Assembly (NCBI GenBank): GCA_041661545.1
Contig: JBAZUH010000001.1
Location: forward strand, 467,877 to 531,876
Length of the DNA: 64,000 nucleotides
Origin: Candidatus Staskawiczbacteria bacterium
GTDB taxonomy: Bacteria; Patescibacteriota; Minisyncoccia; Minisyncoccales; Staskawiczbacteraceae
Direction of reading: 5' to 3'
The notes under the pieces are model-generated. The model saw only the letters and a list, made by a program, of their open reading frames with translations, did no database searches and was not told the origin of the DNA. Below, in pieces: positions 2,974 through 60,078 of this stretch. A program made the position numbers and the translations under genes. The first letter of the stretch is position 1. Each line of letters begins with the position of its first letter.

Positions 2974-3366
2974 TTAAATTTTTTCTACAGTTGTCCAGTC
3001 ACCATCTACCCACAACATTACTATTTCAATTGGAAAACCAAATGAACCAATAACTTCTTTGCATTTTTTAAGTTGTTCAATTTGTTCTTCTTTTTCAGCT
3101 GGATTTCCAGCACATCCAAAGTGCCCAACAATTGCTAACTGCTTAGAACCGTGATGATGAACTGAAATTTCAACTCTTTTTTTAATATCATCAATAACTG
3201 CCATATCGCAATCATTTTTTTCGCATAAAATTTTATTTGGACCAGGCTCGGTTATCATGTCTACATAATCAACGCCATAATTTTTTTTCATATAATCTTT
3301 AACCGCATCTTGAACCCTACCGTCCATACAATTTATTGCACACGCAAAAGTTTTATCTGTTGTCAT
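2974..3366 (-). CDS. Hypothetical small protein with beta-carbonic-anhydrase-like CxDxR / HxxC motifs
   Basis: 130-aa ORF with host-like composition. Motifs NCMDGR and GHFGCAG are present. The functional call is tentative. Confidence 0.55.
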   Translation of the reverse strand: MTTDKTFACAINCMDGRVQDAVKDYMKKNYGVDYVDMITEPGPNKILCEKNDCDMAVIDDIKKRVEISVHHHGSKQLAIVGHFGCAGNPAEKEEQIEQLKKCKEVIGSFGFPIEIVMLWVDGDWTTVEKI

Positions 3367-4647: not shown

Positions 4648-5010
4648 TTACCTAGAAACGAATATTTTCTTTTTACCAAACTCTAAAAGTATGAGTGATA
4701 TAATACCTAAAATTATGCCAACAATTTTTGAAGCTGTAACTTCTTCCCCAAAAATCAGAACTCCCACAATTGTTAAAATTGTAACATTAAACATTACCAA
4801 AATAATTGAAGCCACTGGAATATCTTCGCCTTCATAACTTTTAATTAAAATTGCCATAGCAATTATATAAAAAATCATTGTTATAAAGTATAAAAATAAG
4901 CTTCCGCTGACTCTAACCCATTCTGTTGCAAATATATCTCCTAAAGTTAAAATTGCTCCTCCTATAAGAAGCATAATTAACGGGGATAATTTTTTCTTAT
5001 TTTTTTTCAT
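4648..5010 (-). CDS. Small 4-TM membrane protein, SMR/DMT-like (paired with the next gene)
   Basis: About 120 aa and highly hydrophobic. The start is placed at MKKNKKKLSPL (cat at 5008..5010), which avoids overlap with the upstream paralog. Confidence 0.55.
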   Translation of the reverse strand: MKKNKKKLSPLIMLLIGGAILTLGDIFATEWVRVSGSLFLYFITMIFYIIAMAILIKSYEGEDIPVASIILVMFNVTILTIVGVLIFGEEVTASKIVGIILGIISLILLEFGKKKIFVSR

Positions 5011-5018
5011 TTTTAAAT

Positions 5019-5324
5019 TTATAAAATAATAACGGCTATTAAGCCCACTATAATACCGCACAATTCAGTTTTTGTTATATTTTCTTTAAACAAAAACTTA
5101 CCAGCTATGGTTAAGGTTAATATATTAAAAATCTCCAAGGTGATAGAAGCTACAGCAATATTTTCAAATTTATAACTAAATATTAAAAAAGTTAATCCAA
5201 TTATATAAAAAACCATTACTGATAAATACAGCAATTTGGTTTTAGATTTTATGTATTTACCGGCAATTAAATCACCTATGGTTAAGGCGATTCCGCCAGC
5301 TAATAATAAATAAATGGGAAACAT
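5019..5324 (-). CDS. Small 4-TM membrane protein, SMR/DMT-like (paralog of the previous gene)
   Basis: 101-aa hydrophobic protein with the same LTxGD motif in TM1 as its neighbour. The layout is a tandem pair, as in heterodimeric SMR or ArnE/F-like systems. Confidence 0.55.
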   Translation of the reverse strand: MFPIYLLLAGGIALTIGDLIAGKYIKSKTKLLYLSVMVFYIIGLTFLIFSYKFENIAVASITLEIFNILTLTIAGKFLFKENITKTELCGIIVGLIAVIIL

Positions 5325-13736: not shown

Positions 13737-16700
13737 TTATTGTGCAGACTCCCCACCAATATACATACCTAATATAGAAATTAAGGTATTTATAATTTTT
13801 TCATAAATATTTATAACTGCTGATCTATTTTCTTCGGACGTTGGTGTTGATGTTGGTGTTTGATTTAAAGGAAGCGTATTGGGTTGTAAATTATCAGGAC
13901 CAGTTGTTGGTTGAGCGGGCGTTATAAAGTTTAATCTTAACAAACCAATAGATTTTCTAATTTCGTCTAAAGCTTGGCCCATATAGATCATTATTGATTG
14001 AGAAGTAGTTTGAATTGCATCTATTGCTAATGGAACTATTGAAGTTGCTGTGTAAGAACCGCCGCCTCCACCACCAACTGTTGGAACTGTTATGGTGGCT
14101 GTAGCAGTATGGTCTCCGTCTGTGGTAGTTACTGTTATTGTGGCTGTTCCAGCTGATATTGCTGTTACTAATCCTGTGTCGCTAACTGTGGCAACCGATG
14201 TATTGCTTGAAGACCAGGTTACACTTGAGTCTGTTGCATTGTCTGGAGCAACTGTGCTTGTGAGTTGGTGAGTTGCATCAACTAAGATGCTGGCTGTGCT
14301 GTCATCTAATGTAACTCCTGTGACAGAAATATTTAAAGTTGTTACTGTAATTTCTAATTCTCCATATACATTAGAACCATCATTAGCTGTTGCTCGCACT
14401 GTTACTGCTCCTACGCCTGTTGCTGTTAACAACCCAGAAGAATTAATTGTAGCGGTTCCTGTTCCATCTGTTTTTGACCATGTTACAGTTTGGTCTGTTG
14501 CATCTACAGGTAAAATTGATACAGACATTTGTAAAGTTGAGCCGTTAACAACTGTTGTTGCTGATTCTGCGCCAGAGACGGTGATGCTAGAAACTAATGT
14601 ATCTTCTGGTGCAATTTCTGCACAAACCCCATCTGCGCATTCTAATCCAAAATCGCAATCATCATTAATTGCGCAAACCGAGCCTGCACTCATGTCTGAA
14701 CAATAACCATTGCTAGTGCAAAAAGCTGAACTACAATCACCTCCCACTGTACATGCTTCACCATTTGCTGCTGGTGGAGCAGGAGGTATCTCCACGCATT
14801 GATTTGTATCCCATGTATAACCCTCTGAACACAAATATGTTCCACTATAATCGGTTACTGTGGCGCCGGTAAAATCTGGAGGGCCATAAGCAGATCCGGT
14901 CATATCAATTGTTCCATAATTATCTACTGTGCTTGTATATGTTCCACCGTAAATAGTTCCTACGATTTGGTTAATTGCACTTACAACATAATTTCCTGCA
15001 TAGATATCACCCGAATTATCAATCCCCCAACCATCTCCCGTGTTAGTTAGTGTGCCCGTAATATTTGCGATACTTCCATGATTATCAATGCCATAACCAG
15101 TGAGAGTATTTGCAACAGTTCCCGAAATATCAGTAATTGCACCACCATTATAAATACCAGATCCGTTGTCACTATTATTAATGGTTCCTGAAATATTGGT
15201 GATAGTGCCACCATTAAATACGCCGTAGCTAGTATCACCGCTACTATTTATTGTTATAGAAGCAATTGTAACTCCCGTAACACTACCTGAAACATATACT
15301 CCACGGCCACTGCCTGATACATTAATAGAATATGAACTACCTCCACTCAACGTAACGTTGCTTGCGCTAATAACAATACAATTTCCACTAGATACAGACA
15401 AATCTGTGGTTAAGGTGTAAGTACCTGATGAAGTTATTGTTCCACAAGTGCCAACGCTAGTGGTAAGAGGCAATACACACATTGCGTTGCTTAAGTTATC
15501 TGCGCCCAACACTTTATTGATACTTGTACAATCAAAGCTAGTTACAGGGGTAACTGTTCCACTGTTGTTAGTAATTGTTCCAACAATTGTAAGGCCCGCA
15601 TTAAGGTTAAGAGTTCCAGCAGCTTCTACGGTTATATTGCCTGTAATAGTGCCCGCCCCATTAACAACCCCATCATAAACAACAAATCCCACCCCACTAC
15701 TAGTATTATTTATTGTAGCTGTATTGGTGACTGTAATTGTGCCAGAATTATATACACCATAGCCTGCACCACTGTTAGTAACTGTTCCTGAAATATTAGA
15801 AATCGTAGCACCATCATTATTCACAATACCATAACCACTTGCATCGGTGTTTTCAACAGCTCCTGAAATATTGGTAATTGTTCCCAAGTTATAAATACCA
15901 TAGTTATTGGCATTATTGGTGAAGGTTCCCGAAATGTCGGTGATAACAGCATTAGCGTTATTAGTAATACCAACGACACTAGTATTAGTAAATGTTCCTG
16001 AAATATCTGTAATGGTGCCGTAGTTACTAATACCACCATTAGAATTTATAACTGTTCCTGAGATATCGGTGATAATAGCATAAACATTGTTGACAATGCC
16101 ATTACCGCCACCACTAATTGTAAGAGCCCCTGAAATATCAGTTATTGTGCCATAGTTACTAATAATGTTACCTGCACCGCTATTTGTAATAGTGCCCGTA
16201 ATATCAGTAATAATTCCAGAGGTGTCATTATAAATACCAATATTACCAGAACTATTATCAAAAGTTCCGCTAATATTTGTAATTAATCCTTGGTTTAAGA
16301 TAGCTTGACTGGCCGAACCAGTAAAAGAAATCGTTCCGGTTATATCAACAATAGTGCCCTGGTTGATAAGATAATATCCCGATGAACTACTAATAGTTAA
16401 ATTTAAAATTGTGACTGAGGTACCACTTGGAATAACAGGGCTATTCATTGCACTATCTACAATTTGTACTGAAGTGCCCTCTGGAGGGACAACATAATCT
16501 TGCCAATTTGATGAATCGTTCCAATCTGTACTATAAGAACCTACCCAAGTGTAAAGGGGTTCTGCATCTACTGCTGTTATATCAATTGCTAAACCATTCA
16601 TATCTAACGAAACGCCACTTGTTACTGAATATCCAGTTCCCGGGGCACTTATTGAAATAGATGATATAGTTCCAGCAATAGAATCTATATTTATTGAACA

Positions 16701-41821: not shown

Positions 41822-41948
41822 ATTTATTTAGGCCAAGGGCGCATAGCTCCCGCCTTTGGCGAGGCTCGCCCCGCTTTGCAGGGCGGCAGTTGGCACCCTA
41901 AAGAATTTTAATAGCAATAAAAGCCGTATCTGATAAATATTCAAATAC

Positions 41949-43689: not shown

Positions 43690-43761
43690 GCGGGTGTCGT
43701 ATAGTGGCTATTATGTAACCTTGCCAAGGTTAAGACGGCAGTTCGATTCTGCTCACCCGCT
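43690..43761 (+). tRNA. tRNA-Gly(GCC)
   Basis: Acceptor GCGGGTG/CACCCGC, anticodon stem-loop TAACC-TTGCCAA-GGTTA. Confidence 0.9.
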
Positions 43762-43762
43762 C

Positions 43763-43925
43763 AAAGAAAAAAATCCAGAGTATTTCTGGTTTTTTTTATT
43801 TGATTGAGCAGAATCGAACTGCAGGATGGGGTCGGGAAGGAGACATCCTTCCCGTATAGGAAATTATTCAAAACCGAGGGTTTTGAAAGAGCGAAGCGAC
43901 AAGTTCCATTTCTGCTCACCCGCTC
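43763..43925 (-). mobile_element. Miniature insertion bounded by a 16-nt direct repeat of the tRNA-Gly(GCC) 3' end; conserved structured core, copy A
   Basis: TTCTGCTCACCCGCTC occurs at 43747..43762 and 43910..43925. The interior holds a terminator hairpin, an inverted T-arm fragment (43805..43824), hairpin CGGGAAGGAgacaTCCTTCCCG (43833..43854) and hairpin TTCAAAACCgagGGTTTTGAA (43867..43887). Confidence 0.6.
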
Positions 43926-44608: not shown

Positions 44609-44776
44609 GTGCCCGAGGCGGGACCGCTACGCTAGAACCCGTCGCTCTGCTCCTTCAAAACCCTCGGTTTTGAATAATTTCCTACACGGGAGGAAATGCT
44701 TTCCTCCCGACCCCTCCTTGGGGTTCGACTCCCGCACATTTAAAAAGAACACTATAAATAGTGTTCTTTTTTAATG
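44609..44776 (+). mobile_element. Miniature insertion bounded by a 15-nt direct repeat of the tRNA-Leu(UAA) 3' end; conserved structured core, copy B
   Basis: GTGCCCGAGGCGGGA occurs at 44609..44623 and 44777..44791. Hairpins TTCAAAACCctcGGTTTTGAA (44654..44674) and CGGGAGGAAAtgcTTTCCTCCCG (44687..44709), a T-arm fragment at 44720..44737 and a terminator hairpin at 44741..44773. Confidence 0.6.
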
Positions 44777-44860
44777 GTGCCCGAGGCGGGAGTCGAACCC
44801 ACATGAACTTTCGCTCAAAGGATTTTAAGTCCTTCGTGTATACCATTCCACCACTCGGGC
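44775..44860 (-). tRNA. tRNA-Leu(UAA), CCA encoded
   Basis: Acceptor GCCCGAG/CTCGGGC, anticodon stem-loop AAGGA-CTTAAAA-TCCTT, long variable arm. Confidence 0.9.
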
Positions 44861-58455: not shown

Positions 58456-58500
58456 ATAAACCTTTCTGATTAACTAATATATTATCATGAAAATCTTCCT

Positions 58501-58529
58501 TTGACAATATGCCTTTTTTGAGATATTAT
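58501..58529 (+). promoter_or_regulatory. Putative promoter of the tRNA-Pro/tRNA-Gly operon
   Basis: TTGACA (58501..58506), a 17-nt spacer, then TATTAT (58524..58529). Confidence 0.55.
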
Positions 58530-58553
58530 CTATAATATACATTAAGTATATAT

Positions 58554-58624
58554 CGGGGTATTGTGTAACGGTAGCACGAATCGTTTGGGACGATTTAGTC
58601 TCGGTTCAAATCCGAGTACCCCGA
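58554..58624 (+). tRNA. tRNA-Pro(UGG)
   Basis: Acceptor CGGGGTA/TACCCCG, anticodon stem-loop AATCG-TTTGGGA-CGATT. Confidence 0.9.
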
Positions 58625-58635
58625 CATAAATTAAC

Positions 58636-58706
58636 GCAGGTATCGTATATCGGTATTACCTTAGCTTTCCAAGCTAATGAGAGGGGTTCGACTCCCCTTA
58701 CCTGCT
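58636..58706 (+). tRNA. tRNA-Gly(UCC)
   Basis: Acceptor GCAGGTA/TACCTGC, anticodon stem-loop TTAGC-TTTCCAA-GCTAA. Confidence 0.9.
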
Positions 58707-58708
58707 CA

Positions 58709-58966
58709 ATGTATTCAGTATATATTTTACAAAGCTTAAAAGACAATAAAACATATACCGGATTTTCAGAAAATGCGCACGCTAGATTAATTGAGCACAA
58801 TTCTGGTAAAGTTGATGCGACCAAAAATAGAAGGCCGCTTAAAATTTTATTTATCGAAGAGGCAGAATGCCTAAGTATTGCCAAAAAGCGAGAGAAATAT
58901 TGGAAAAGCGGCGCAGGCAGGCGCAAATTAAAGATTTTTTTTGAAAAGGGGTTCCCGCCCATTTAA
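58709..58966 (+). CDS. GIY-YIG nuclease-domain protein (UPF0213-like, 85 aa)
   Basis: YSVYILQSLKDNKTYTGFSEN...RLIEHNSG...KREKYWKS. The ATG lies 2 nt after the tRNA-Gly(UCC) end. Confidence 0.8.
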   Translation: MYSVYILQSLKDNKTYTGFSENAHARLIEHNSGKVDATKNRRPLKILFIEEAECLSIAKKREKYWKSGAGRRKLKIFFEKGFPPI

Positions 58967-59023
58967 ATGGGCGAGGCTCGCTCAAATTATATAATTTGAG
59001 CGGCGACTCCCCTTACCTGCTCA
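58709..59023 (+). mobile_element. 315-bp GIY-YIG insertion bounded by a 20-nt direct repeat of the tRNA-Gly(UCC) 3' end
   Basis: CGACTCCCCTTACCTGCTCA occurs at 58689..58708 and 59004..59023. The interior holds perfect palindromes GCCCATTTAAATGGGC (58957..58972) and GCTCAAATTATATAATTTGAGC (58980..59001). Confidence 0.7.
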
Positions 59024-59061
59024 CTTAAAAACAACACCGCAAAAGGCGGTTTTTGATTATT

Positions 59062-60078
59062 ATGATTCCAAATAAAAAAACAAAAGTTATCGCAACAATT
59101 GGGCCATCATCAGAACAAGAAAAAATATTAGAAAAATTAATTTCTCTTGGTATTGATTGCGCAAGATTAAATTTTTCTCATGGAAGCCATCAAGAACAAG
59201 GCAATAGAATAAAACTTATAAGAAAACTTGAAAAAAAATTTAAAAGAAGCGTTGCTATAATTGCCGACATTCAAGGGCCCAAAATAAGAATAGGAAATTT
59301 ACCAGAATGCGGAATAGAACTAAAAAATGGCCAAGAAATAACCATTGATACTGGCACTAGAGAGTATTATAGCAACAGAATCCCCCTCCCATCATTAATG
59401 TTTCGTGATGGAACAAAAGAAGGTCATCTTATTTTATTAGATGACGGAAACTTACAAATTAAAATAACTAGCAAATATGGAGGGCTCTTCAAAGCTATTG
59501 TAACCAGGGGTGGTACTTTATTTTCTAAAAAAGGGGTCAATGTTCCCGATTTAGACAACAATTCTTCCATTCTAAACGCCAAAGATAAAGCCGACATACA
59601 ATTTGCAGTAAAATCTAAAGCAGATTATATAGCTCTTTCTTTTATAAGAACTGCAAAAGATCTTAAAGGAGTAAAAAAGTTTTTAGGAAAATCAAAAATA
59701 AAAATAATTGCTAAAATAGAAAGACCAGAAGCACTTTACAACCTAGAAGAAATTATAAACGAGGCTGATATGGTAATGATTGCCCGAGGAGACCTAGGTA
59801 TTGAAACCCCACTTTGGGAACTTCCCGTAAGACAAAAAGAAATAATAGAACTCGTAAAAAAAGGAAAAAAACAGGTAATTGTGGCCACGCAAATGCTTGA
59901 TTCTATGATAAGAAATCCCATTCCCACAAGAGCTGAAGTTTCCGATGTAGCAAATGCTGTTTTTGAAGAAGCTGATTATGTTATGCTCTCGGGAGAAACG
60001 GCCTCTGGCAAATATCCACTTGAAGCAGTGGCAATGATGAAAAAAATCATAGACTCAGCCCAAAAATACCATTTCTAA
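59062..60078 (+). CDS. pyk: Pyruvate kinase, truncated form lacking the C-terminal regulatory domain
   Basis: KTKVIATIGPSS, ARLNFSHGS, MIARGDLGIE and MLSGETASGKYP. It is 338 aa from the ATG at 59062 (the track ORF starts at a TTG at 59053). Confidence 0.85.
   Translation: MIPNKKTKVIATIGPSSEQEKILEKLISLGIDCARLNFSHGSHQEQGNRIKLIRKLEKKFKRSVAIIADIQGPKIRIGNLPECGIELKNGQEITIDTGTREYYSNRIPLPSLMFRDGTKEGHLILLDDGNLQIKITSKYGGLFKAIVTRGGTLFSKKGVNVPDLDNNSSILNAKDKADIQFAVKSKADYIALSFIRTAKDLKGVKKFLGKSKIKIIAKIERPEALYNLEEIINEADMVMIARGDLGIETPLWELPVRQKEIIELVKKGKKQVIVATQMLDSMIRNPIPTRAEVSDVANAVFEEADYVMLSGETASGKYPLEAVAMMKKIIDSAQKYHF

Follow-up and report, generated by a model that had tools for sequence, protein, structure and literature searches.

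A GIY-YIG nuclease gene with a double-hairpin module and a carried tRNA end: a probable mobile unit at tRNA genes of Patescibacteria

Why would a gene for a nuclease of only 85 amino acids begin directly behind a tRNA gene and be followed by an exact copy of that tRNA gene's own end? This question is raised by a locus in 64,000 nt of a genome of Candidatus Staskawiczbacteria (Patescibacteria), which we call the window and whose positions we use throughout (Table 1). The insert behind its intact tRNA-Gly(UCC) gene measures 315 bp (58709-59023) and holds a single open reading frame (ORF) of the GIY-YIG type, two palindromes and a second copy of the tRNA 3' end. An original prediction made on this DNA had described a minimal selfish element in which a homing-type nuclease targets the tRNA gene, duplicates 20 nt of it on insertion and regenerates it. 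The features that it listed (tRNA, ORF, palindromes, repeat and terminator) are all present; the insertion, its polymorphism and the regeneration of the tRNA stand, mobility is what we infer from them, the homing-type nuclease is not supported, and the simple duplication had to be given up. We read the element as a three-part unit of the 85-aa nuclease, a double-hairpin module and a carried tRNA fragment that would spread by a nuclease-made break and host recombination, with a probability of roughly 60%. We hold it highly probable that the insert is mobile or selfish and belongs to a tRNA-associated family; the specific copying mechanism that we propose below is tentative.

Filled and empty sites and the association with tRNA genes

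We scanned metagenome contigs for the tRNA 3' end GGTTCGACTCCCCTTACCTGCTC and obtained 52 loci; at about 19 of these the tRNA is followed by the pyruvate kinase gene (pyk) within roughly 10 to 140 nt, often after a terminator hairpin and with no GIY-YIG ORF. At such empty sites a terminator of this kind stands directly behind the tRNA, which is the simple junction that removal of 58709-59023 had been predicted to restore; not all relatives carry the gene, as these empty tRNA-Gly loci demonstrate. Filled tRNA-Gly(UCC)/pyk sites with a perfect repeat of 19 to 20 nt are found three times, in the window and in the loci L081 and L140, and the only filled locus of the scan lies on the same contig as L081. 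In pyk, the window is 83.8%, 83.3% and 81.7% identical to the empty loci L135, L088 and L118 and 78.3% identical to the filled L081, whose nearest pyk relatives are also empty (L088 with 83% and L097 with 82%). Since related contigs lack the insert and some of them are closer than other filled sites, the reading of 58709-59023 as an insertion that is present or absent among relatives holds. The pattern needs several gains or several precise losses, and the direct repeat would permit a precise loss of the element. At the filled site a full tRNA 3' end precedes the ORF, which regenerates the tRNA and keeps it functional; its sequence, with a lineage-specific acceptor stem (GCAGGTA/TACCTGC), is identical at filled and empty sites.

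The repeat itself, CGACTCCCCTTACCTGCTCA, occurs exactly twice in the 64 kb (58689-58708 and 59004-59023), and 100 shuffles produced zero such matches even with 3 mismatches allowed. Its extent had been put at 20 nt. With AGGGGTTC directly before the palindromes (58947-58954), which repeats the 5' half of the T-arm (58682-58689), the displaced copy measures about 28 nt and has the form AGGGGTTC, module, GACTCC...CA; its T-loop is split at positions 56/57 by a two-hairpin insert of 48 to 49 nt. All type-B relatives have GGGTTC at the corresponding position. The idea of a tRNA acceptor 5' strand concealed in the conserved SGAGRRK coding region was dropped, as the partial match GCAGGCA is forced by Ala-Gly codons and absent in the tRNA-Leu loci described next.

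The displaced copy is kept perfectly in L081 and L140, and it also stands behind a foreign tRNA. The closest homolog of the window's ORF (84%) is that of L139, where the ORF, GGGTTC, the module and CGACTCCCCTTACCTGCTCA follow a different tRNA-Gly(UCC) with the T-arm GCCAGTTCGACTCTGGT and the acceptor end ATCCCGCTCA, and where the next gene differs as well. Similarly, at five tRNA-Leu loci (L003-L006 and L039) a Leu(UAG) or Leu(CAG) gene has as its downstream fragment a Leu(UAA)-type acceptor end with a self-consistent T-stem, and all that is left there of the true repeat is microhomology, e.g., AGCACAAA; L013 is the cognate Leu(UAA) case and has an exact repeat of 19 nt. A plain duplication made on insertion, as originally proposed, does not survive the presence of the same 20 nt behind a different tRNA in L139, and we reject a simple target-site duplication because in L139 and at the tRNA-Leu loci the fragment behind the ORF does not match the tRNA beside it. 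As the ORF, the T-arm piece, the module and the tRNA end have moved jointly in these cases, we consider them one mobile unit.

An association with tRNA genes is seen across the family. We collected 80 genome loci encoding relatives, with 87 ORF copies, 7 of which lie at contig ends. Among the 80 assessable copies, 61 adjoin an intact co-oriented tRNA gene (within 200 nt upstream for 46, within 150 nt downstream for 10 and on both sides for 5), so other GIY-YIG copies do sit next to tRNAs, which was one of the checks named in the original prediction. As a rough estimate, genomes of about 1 Mb with a few dozen tRNA genes should show such neighbours by chance in a few per cent of cases at most. 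The loci are mostly labelled Patescibacteria, with about one-sixth "uncultured Gammaproteobacteria" (taken by us, as an unchecked assumption, to be unreliable bin labelling) and a few Bacteroidota, Omnitrophota and other phyla.

Often a partial tRNA copy interrupted by a hairpin lies on the other side of the ORF. Loci with the ORF directly after the tRNA, as in the window, carry, 56 to 63 nt past the stop codon, an exact copy of 18 to 22 nt of the tRNA end that starts from the T-loop CGAnTCC, as seen at tRNA-Gly (L008, L019), tRNA-Cys (L055, labelled Bacteroidetes) and tRNA-Phe (L080), and the ATG of most close relatives is found 0 to 11 nt after the tRNA. More distant homologs have the mirror form, in which the ORF is preceded by a 5' tRNA copy that a GC-rich palindrome breaks in one of its loops (D-loop, anticodon loop or T-loop) and is followed by the intact tRNA. 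Two near-identical tandem units of this kind directly precede an intact tRNA on the complete Cytophagales chromosome OZ254083.1 (L074, 2940-3600), in each of which the hairpin CCTGCCTGCCGGCAGGCAGG follows a tRNA 5' copy and precedes 9 nt of tRNA and the ORF. This shows that the design extends beyond Patescibacteria and to a finished genome. Across the family the repeat measures from 8 to more than 40 nt, following tRNA content, and it can include non-tRNA host flank (17 nt of it in L061; also L055). The common design is an intact tRNA, an ORF and a partial tRNA copy that is broken in a loop by a palindrome, and single genomes can hold several diverged paralogs at different tRNAs. The element does not qualify as an insertion sequence, with palindromes at one end only, a repeat of variable length and a GIY-YIG domain as its sole protein. 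In the clade of L047, L049 and L050 (~2980-3300), the ORF lies between 16-bp inverted repeats (ATACCCCGTAGGAAAT and ATTTCCTACGGGGTAT) with no tRNA nearby; it resembles a minimal transposon of ~330 bp, and the right repeat of L049 adjoins the left repeat of a further unit.

Other identities of the locus were rejected. The architecture is present in four independent assemblies (recurring in L081/L082/L083, L139 and L140) and is not an assembly artefact. A search of 58500-59100 against Rfam at E up to 10 matched only the two tRNAs, with no intron match, which excludes a known RNA family for the insert and, together with the uninterrupted tRNA, a group I or group II intron or a split tRNA.

The nuclease and its double-hairpin module

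The ORF matches the Pfam domain GIY-YIG (PF01541) over residues 1-71 with 46.9 bits (cut-off 22.6; E 3.4e-12) as its sole Pfam domain, with no second or DNA-binding domain detected by Pfam in the 85-aa protein. The catalytic residues on which the claim of a nuclease hinged are in place: Y5, Y16, R26, H30 and E62 are invariant in 34 homologs and align with those of the UPF0213 protein BH0048. A profile search of solved structures returned BH0048 and EF2693, both UPF0213 (E about 1e-9), and then Slx1. In the AlphaFold2 model (pLDDT 96.7), strands at residues 2-9, 15-20 and 44-52 form a three-stranded alpha/beta fold that Foldseek superposes best on UPF0213 (1zg2) and the Slx1 nuclease domain (TM 0.67, RMSD 1.6 Å) and more poorly on the I-TevI catalytic domain. 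The C-terminal zinc finger of Slx1 is absent, as the protein stops after the nuclease domain and only 68 to 74 columns align to Slx1 chains of 260 to 320 residues. Judged by sequence and model, the protein is a bona fide GIY-YIG catalytic domain of the Slx1/UPF0213 type and a predicted nuclease. It is not of the I-TevI/Seg type of homing enzymes, which have a DNA-binding domain, and the NCBIfam model for group I intron endonucleases gives 14 bits versus a cut-off of 56; the original label "homing-type" is not supported for such a protein.

A profile of ORF homologs finds 14,742 clusters (50% identity) at E ≤ 1e-3 and 3,279 at E ≤ 1e-10. A phage origin was rejected upon finding no IMG/VR relatives and no PHROG match, and a defence system upon finding no PADLOC match. 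In protein match lists, many database gene calls of the family have N-terminal extensions, which resemble a translated tRNA T-arm (…GSTPTPS…) in the two examined (P0040 and P0073), and other gene calls end in GRGS(L/P)K, the translated module core GGGCGAGGCTCGCTCAAA. Such extensions are annotation artefacts that reveal the tRNA and module context.

The palindromes had been treated as incidental to the element. They are both real and perfect, with CGCCCATTTAAATGGGCG as palindrome 1 (58956-58973) and CGCTCAAATTATATAATTTGAGCG as palindrome 2 (58979-59002), each longer by one base pair per side than first described, and they form a conserved module specific to the protein lineage that is the best-conserved non-coding part of the element. 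Its general form is a C, a first hairpin from CGC to GCG, AGGCT, a second hairpin from CGC to GCG and a G, with a near-invariant core, GCGAGGCTCGC, at 58971-58981. This core occurs 2 times in the window versus 0.14 expected and is present in most loci of the closer protein clade. The module also reaches into the gene: the T-arm fragment and the hairpin-1 5' arm together encode the final codons of the ORF (GFPPI and stop), so that the stop codon falls within the first palindrome.

Across 42 clean instances of the module, we found 39 distinct hairpin-1 arms whose mean identity beyond the three-base clamp is 0.46, yet they are paired throughout. The stricter subset of 31 instances in which both hairpins score well comprises 561 Watson-Crick, 4 G-T and 1 A-C pairs, and many of the hairpins are loop-less palindromes. 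Because the pairs are almost all Watson-Crick, with no excess of G-T, and so many palindromes lack a loop, the hairpins argue for a structure at the DNA level rather than an RNA selected for pairing, and an RNA-level function is disfavoured on the same grounds. Folding of 58940-59030 as single-stranded DNA (z = -5.8) yields a three-way junction with the T-stem as its closing helix. On a neighbour-joining ORF tree, the class of palindrome (core module, CCTGCCTGCCGGCAGGCAGG, a longer AT-rich hairpin or 16-bp inverted repeats flanking the ORF) tracks the protein clade and not the tRNA type.

The comparison of the window with L081 shows how these parts are constrained. Their ORFs are 79% identical in nucleotides (dN 0.108, dS 1.34, dN/dS 0.08), and the ORF is under strong purifying selection. 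Despite saturated synonymous sites, the two loci agree fully in the module stems, the core and the 20-nt second copy, and changes affect the hairpin tips only. The second copy could in principle be maintained by conversion from the tRNA; the module is conserved without any conversion template, from which we conclude that this non-coding part is functional for whatever selects on the unit.

The module also takes other positions. At most tRNA-Gly loci (L001, L009-L046, e.g., L040 2930-3000, L017 and L022) it lies between the tRNA and the ORF; the hairpin-1 5' arm is the tRNA's own 3' end plus trailer, often with the native terminator, and the 3' arm is its exact complement, tracking the host variant (…CA, …CCA, …TA; …GACCA for tRNA-Pro). 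Only AGGCT, hairpin 2 and the G are constant there, and the inverted copy appears to be templated in place. At least two tandem module copies separate the tRNA from the ORF in L033, L043, L045, L046, L011, L025 and L038, and in the loci inspected a short piece of the tRNA-Gly end (CCCGCT[C], degenerate in some cases) stands behind every copy, which looks like the outcome of repeated insertion. In L015 (~4794-4804), L034 (~5079-5089) and L036 (~4705-4715, minus strand), the module is inserted into a conserved non-coding sequence common to the three (…GGATACTTTCACC, module, CACAAGGATCATTCGGTG…) with no Rfam match at the gathering threshold and, for L015, none at E up to 1. The ORF-less module copy in the window (Table 1), 55 nt upstream of the real tRNA-Ile (41949), mirrors the main architecture and is probably the remnant of a mirror-type element.

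Spread of the unit and rival explanations

How would such a unit be expressed and copied? The ATG lies 1 nt past the end of tRNA-Gly, a gap too short for a promoter, and no Shine-Dalgarno sequence precedes it. With neither a promoter nor a ribosome-binding site of its own, the ORF would be transcribed by read-through from the tRNA promoter, for which the site at 58501-58529 is the sole plausible candidate; it would serve tRNA-Pro, tRNA-Gly and presumably the ORF, and tRNA 3' processing would leave an almost leaderless mRNA. For its spread, we propose that a break made by the nuclease is repaired by copying from the filled locus into tRNA genes, with the upstream tRNA as left homology and the carried tRNA end as right homology. 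Copying into a cognate tRNA would regenerate that tRNA and yield a long exact repeat. In a non-cognate tRNA, only microhomologies in the universal T-loop and at the 3' end would be available, and the old tRNA fragment would be imported. Re-invasion would give tandem units such as those of L074.

Several observations weigh against this proposal. The tRNA of filled sites is identical to that of empty sites, which would leave a tRNA-cutting enzyme without obvious self-immunity and makes it doubtful that the insertion destroys a recognition site, and an 85-aa domain lacking a DNA-binding domain is a poor candidate for reading a long target. The nuclease may not even set the insertion site, given that an ORF-less element of ~150 nt uses the same tRNA, T-loop position and repeat. 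No recent near-identical pair of filled and empty sites was found among the loci compared (L140 and L088 share a similar terminator and are not close in nucleotides), and the ORFs of filled sites have diverged (81% at the amino acid level) much like their hosts (pyk 78%), so that old vertical inheritance with repeated precise loss is just as possible. The strong purifying selection, seen in a genome of ~0.74 Mb, also fits a gene that benefits the host. Finally, the hairpin arm of the module-upstream loci is templated from each host's tRNA end, for which no model considered here accounts.

The main rival is a structure-specific nuclease whose substrate would be the palindromic module of its own element, in the form of a cruciform or of single-stranded DNA hairpins, and not the empty target, with the tRNA segments steering the freed end or copy to tRNA genes by homology. 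Much of the evidence above speaks for this: the nearest structures are Slx1 and UPF0213 and not I-TevI, the module is the most conserved non-coding part, its loop-less Watson-Crick hairpins favour a structure in DNA, each protein clade has its own palindrome, one clade has the minimal-transposon-like arrangement of 16-bp inverted repeats around the ORF, and the problem of self-immunity disappears. Yet shared descent would by itself make linked parts co-vary, cutting the module, which lies between direct repeats, would promote ORF loss through single-strand annealing, and no simple recombination scheme starting from a cut module gives a product that retains the hairpin. Also counting against it, we know of no GIY-YIG transposase that acts alone. 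All in all, we regard this explanation as rather unlikely. Similarly doubtful is its extension to a new principle of transposition, by which an Slx1-like nuclease acting on its cognate module would use tRNA segments as interchangeable "addresses" into tRNA loops, making these the smallest autonomous mobile elements known (~300 bp), with the ORF-less modules and the 150-nt element as non-autonomous passengers.

Two further explanations are less consistent with the data. The first, which we hold to be improbable, is that a tyrosine integrase or Xer-type recombinase encoded elsewhere acts at the T-loop and that the GIY-YIG gene is cargo or has another role. Integrases reportedly leave, as their classic signature in tRNA genes, a repeat that spans T-loop to 3' end and restores the tRNA (according to Williams, 2002, in Nucleic Acids Res), and a repeat of the tRNA 3' part with a regenerated tRNA is what is present here. 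An unrelated ORF-less element at the same tRNA with a repeat from the same base (L105 and L125) and the tandem arrays of module and tRNA-end units point the same way. However, no integrase is encoded in or near the element, and the T-arm as putative attP core is broken by 49 nt, which is incompatible with an overlap region of 6 to 8 bp between core sites. A repeat of 8 to more than 40 nt that sometimes includes non-tRNA flank (L061, L055) does not fit either, nor does the tight and specific linkage of the ORF to these sites in hundreds of genomes. With no recombinase and a split core, the remnant of an integrase-driven island is rejected.

The second, which we rate just as low, is a domesticated host gene, i.e., that nuclease and structured sequence serve the host in the processing or stability of tRNA-operon RNA or in DNA repair, with the repeat as an old scar kept by gene conversion. 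It would explain the dN/dS of 0.08, the retention in very small genomes, the same site in three species-level lineages and the co-transcription with tRNAs, and it could draw on the stable RNA fold of module and flanks and on a whole transcript in which the tRNA 5' strand and the copy further downstream can pair. Against it stand the absence of the gene at this site from most close relatives, its movement to other tRNAs and genomes along with a foreign tRNA fragment, the diverged paralogs at different tRNAs of single genomes, hairpins devoid of G-U pairs and the conservation of the module without a gene-conversion template. Moreover, hairpin 2 has no U-tract and is not a terminator; the real terminator lies further downstream.

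Known systems, flanking features and further inserts

To our knowledge, UPF0213 proteins have no assigned function, and we know of no reported link of theirs to tRNAs or hairpins. BH0048 (PDB 1zg2), EF2693 (PDB 1ywl) and Slx1 are the best matches of our protein in sequence and fold and have the Y-Y-R-H-E set in common with it; Slx1 differs in its C-terminal zinc-finger domain and in having a partner, Slx4.

The conceptually closest case may be one from fungal mitochondria. In work of Paquin et al. from 1994, a mobile endonuclease ORF reportedly inserts at the 3' end of atp6 in Allomyces mitochondria and brings a replacement end. As in our element, the host gene is left intact through a duplicated end and the original end is displaced downstream, in a bacterial tRNA gene here rather than a mitochondrial protein gene and without a sequence relationship. 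Double-hairpin elements are also described for the mitochondrial DNA of Allomyces (Paquin et al. 2000, cited in PMC2800124); like ours, they are short, GC-rich, dispersed and associated with mobile DNA, whereas the double hairpin of our element has an invariant core, a fixed place in a displaced tRNA loop and a link to an ORF. By analogy, this replacement-end case seems closer still than SegB of phage T4, a free-standing GIY-YIG homing endonuclease gene in the phage's tRNA gene cluster (PMC2330249). With SegB, our element shares a stand-alone GIY-YIG gene beside tRNA genes at a site that is optional among relatives, and the repair of double-strand breaks with co-conversion of flanks, as for phage Seg genes, is the model of spread that we favour for it. 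Unlike enzymes of the Seg/I-TevI type (about 200 to 250 aa with a DNA-binding domain), its protein of 85 aa is a catalytic domain only, and unlike SegB, it is chromosomal in Patescibacteria, without IMG/VR relatives, and carries a hairpin-interrupted copy of the end of its target gene.

Elements that target tRNA genes with tyrosine integrases also have a regenerated tRNA, tandem accretion at the same tRNA and a direct repeat that starts in the T-loop or a different loop and stops where the tRNA does. Our element differs from them by the missing integrase, a total of ~300 bp, a core split by a 49-nt module, the variable repeat and the mirror 5' forms. GIY-YIG proteins in non-intron insertions of rRNA genes are known from bacteria of the Candidate Phyla Radiation (CPR; PMC11270868) and agree with our element in phylum, protein superfamily, a structural RNA gene as target and the absence of a group I or II intron. 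Its text has no mention of tRNA genes under the terms "GIY-YIG" and "tRNA gene", which do not cover duplicated gene ends or hairpins, and neither the architecture nor a similar one surfaced under the search terms in this paper or in one on tRNA introns of Patescibacteria (PMC13011429). A full-text literature search found no description, within the searchable library, of the combination of tRNA, nuclease and hairpin module.

If the element is active, a nuclease of 85 residues and ~50 nt of hairpin DNA would suffice for selfish persistence and spread, hidden in tRNA transcription units of the most reduced bacterial genomes and repairing the gene that it invades. The strategy of inserting and bringing a replacement gene end would then reach beyond organelles and phages to tRNA genes on bacterial chromosomes, a function would be found for part of the GIY-YIG proteins in the large, uncharacterised UPF0213-like branch, and partial tRNA copies as well as odd N- and C-terminal extensions in Patescibacteria gene calls would be accounted for. 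The layout of module plus address could even be a compact, programmable targeting system.

Table 1. Features of the tRNA-Gly(UCC) locus and related inserts in the window
Feature	Position	Strand	Details
ORF-less second module copy (GGGCGCATAGCTC, module, AGTTGG)	41837..41893	+	19-nt copy of tRNA-Ile(UAU) 5' end, broken in D-loop
ORF-less insert, second kind	43747-43925	+	3' of tRNA-Gly(GCC), 16-nt repeat
ORF-less insert, second kind	44609-44800	-	3' of tRNA-Leu(UAA), 15-nt repeat
Promoter-like site (TTGACA, 17-nt spacer, TATTAT)	58501..58529	+	11/12 matches; upstream of tRNA-Pro
tRNA-Pro(UGG)	58554..58625	+	First gene of transcription unit; ARAGORN, Rfam
tRNA-Gly(UCC)	58636..58707	+	Intact, host gene of insertion; ARAGORN, Rfam tRNA 57 bits
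First, uninterrupted copy of tRNA segment	58682..58708	+	T-arm 5' half AGGGGTTC, then GACTCCCCTTACCTGCTCA
GIY-YIG ORF, 85 aa	58709..58966	+	ORF list; Pfam GIY-YIG match
Second copy of T-arm 5' half AGGGGTTC	58947..58954	+	Short homology segment "S"; inside ORF 3' end, directly before module
Double-hairpin module	58955..59003	+	C, hairpin 1 (58956-58973), linker AGGCT (58974-58978), hairpin 2 (58979-59002), G
Second copy of tRNA 3' end CGACTCCCCTTACCTGCTCA	59004..59023	+	Long homology segment "L"; exact repeat
Intrinsic terminator of tRNA operon	59036..59055	+	Now 3' of insert; stem 59036-59050 plus T run
Pyruvate kinase gene (pyk)	59062..60078	+	Flank defining syntenic filled/empty sites

The ORF list of the neighbourhood includes no integrase, recombinase or other mobility gene in or near the element, and two further ORFs nearby resemble hydrolases of the HAD and NUDIX types by sequence motifs alone. 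A fold of 58636-59055 as a single RNA pairs the 5' acceptor strand of tRNA-Gly with the second, downstream 3' strand, in the minimum-energy structure as well as in the centroid, and encloses ORF and module; this pairing is expected from the repeat and is no evidence of function.

The window holds two ORF-less inserts of a second kind (Table 1), for which Rfam gave no match. They begin with the tRNA, a terminator, an inverted T-arm copy and a conserved non-coding core of ~95 nt (GGGGTCGGGAGGAAA…CCGAGGGTTTTGAA…GCGAC), and continue with GGGTTC and a mini-hairpin (TAGCGAAGCG), after which the tRNA 3' end is repeated and another terminator follows. Inserts of this kind occupy the same tRNA-Gly(UCC) site in L105 and L125, with a repeat from the same T-loop base. 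Also at this tRNA-Gly(UCC), L103 has a mini version at a contig end (~14710-14800) that has neither an ORF nor the GCGAGGCTCGC core and consists of 27 nt, GGGTTC and two hairpins (GCCCTATC…GATAGGGC and GCCCCGTC…GACGGGGC), followed by GACTCCCCTTACCTGCT.

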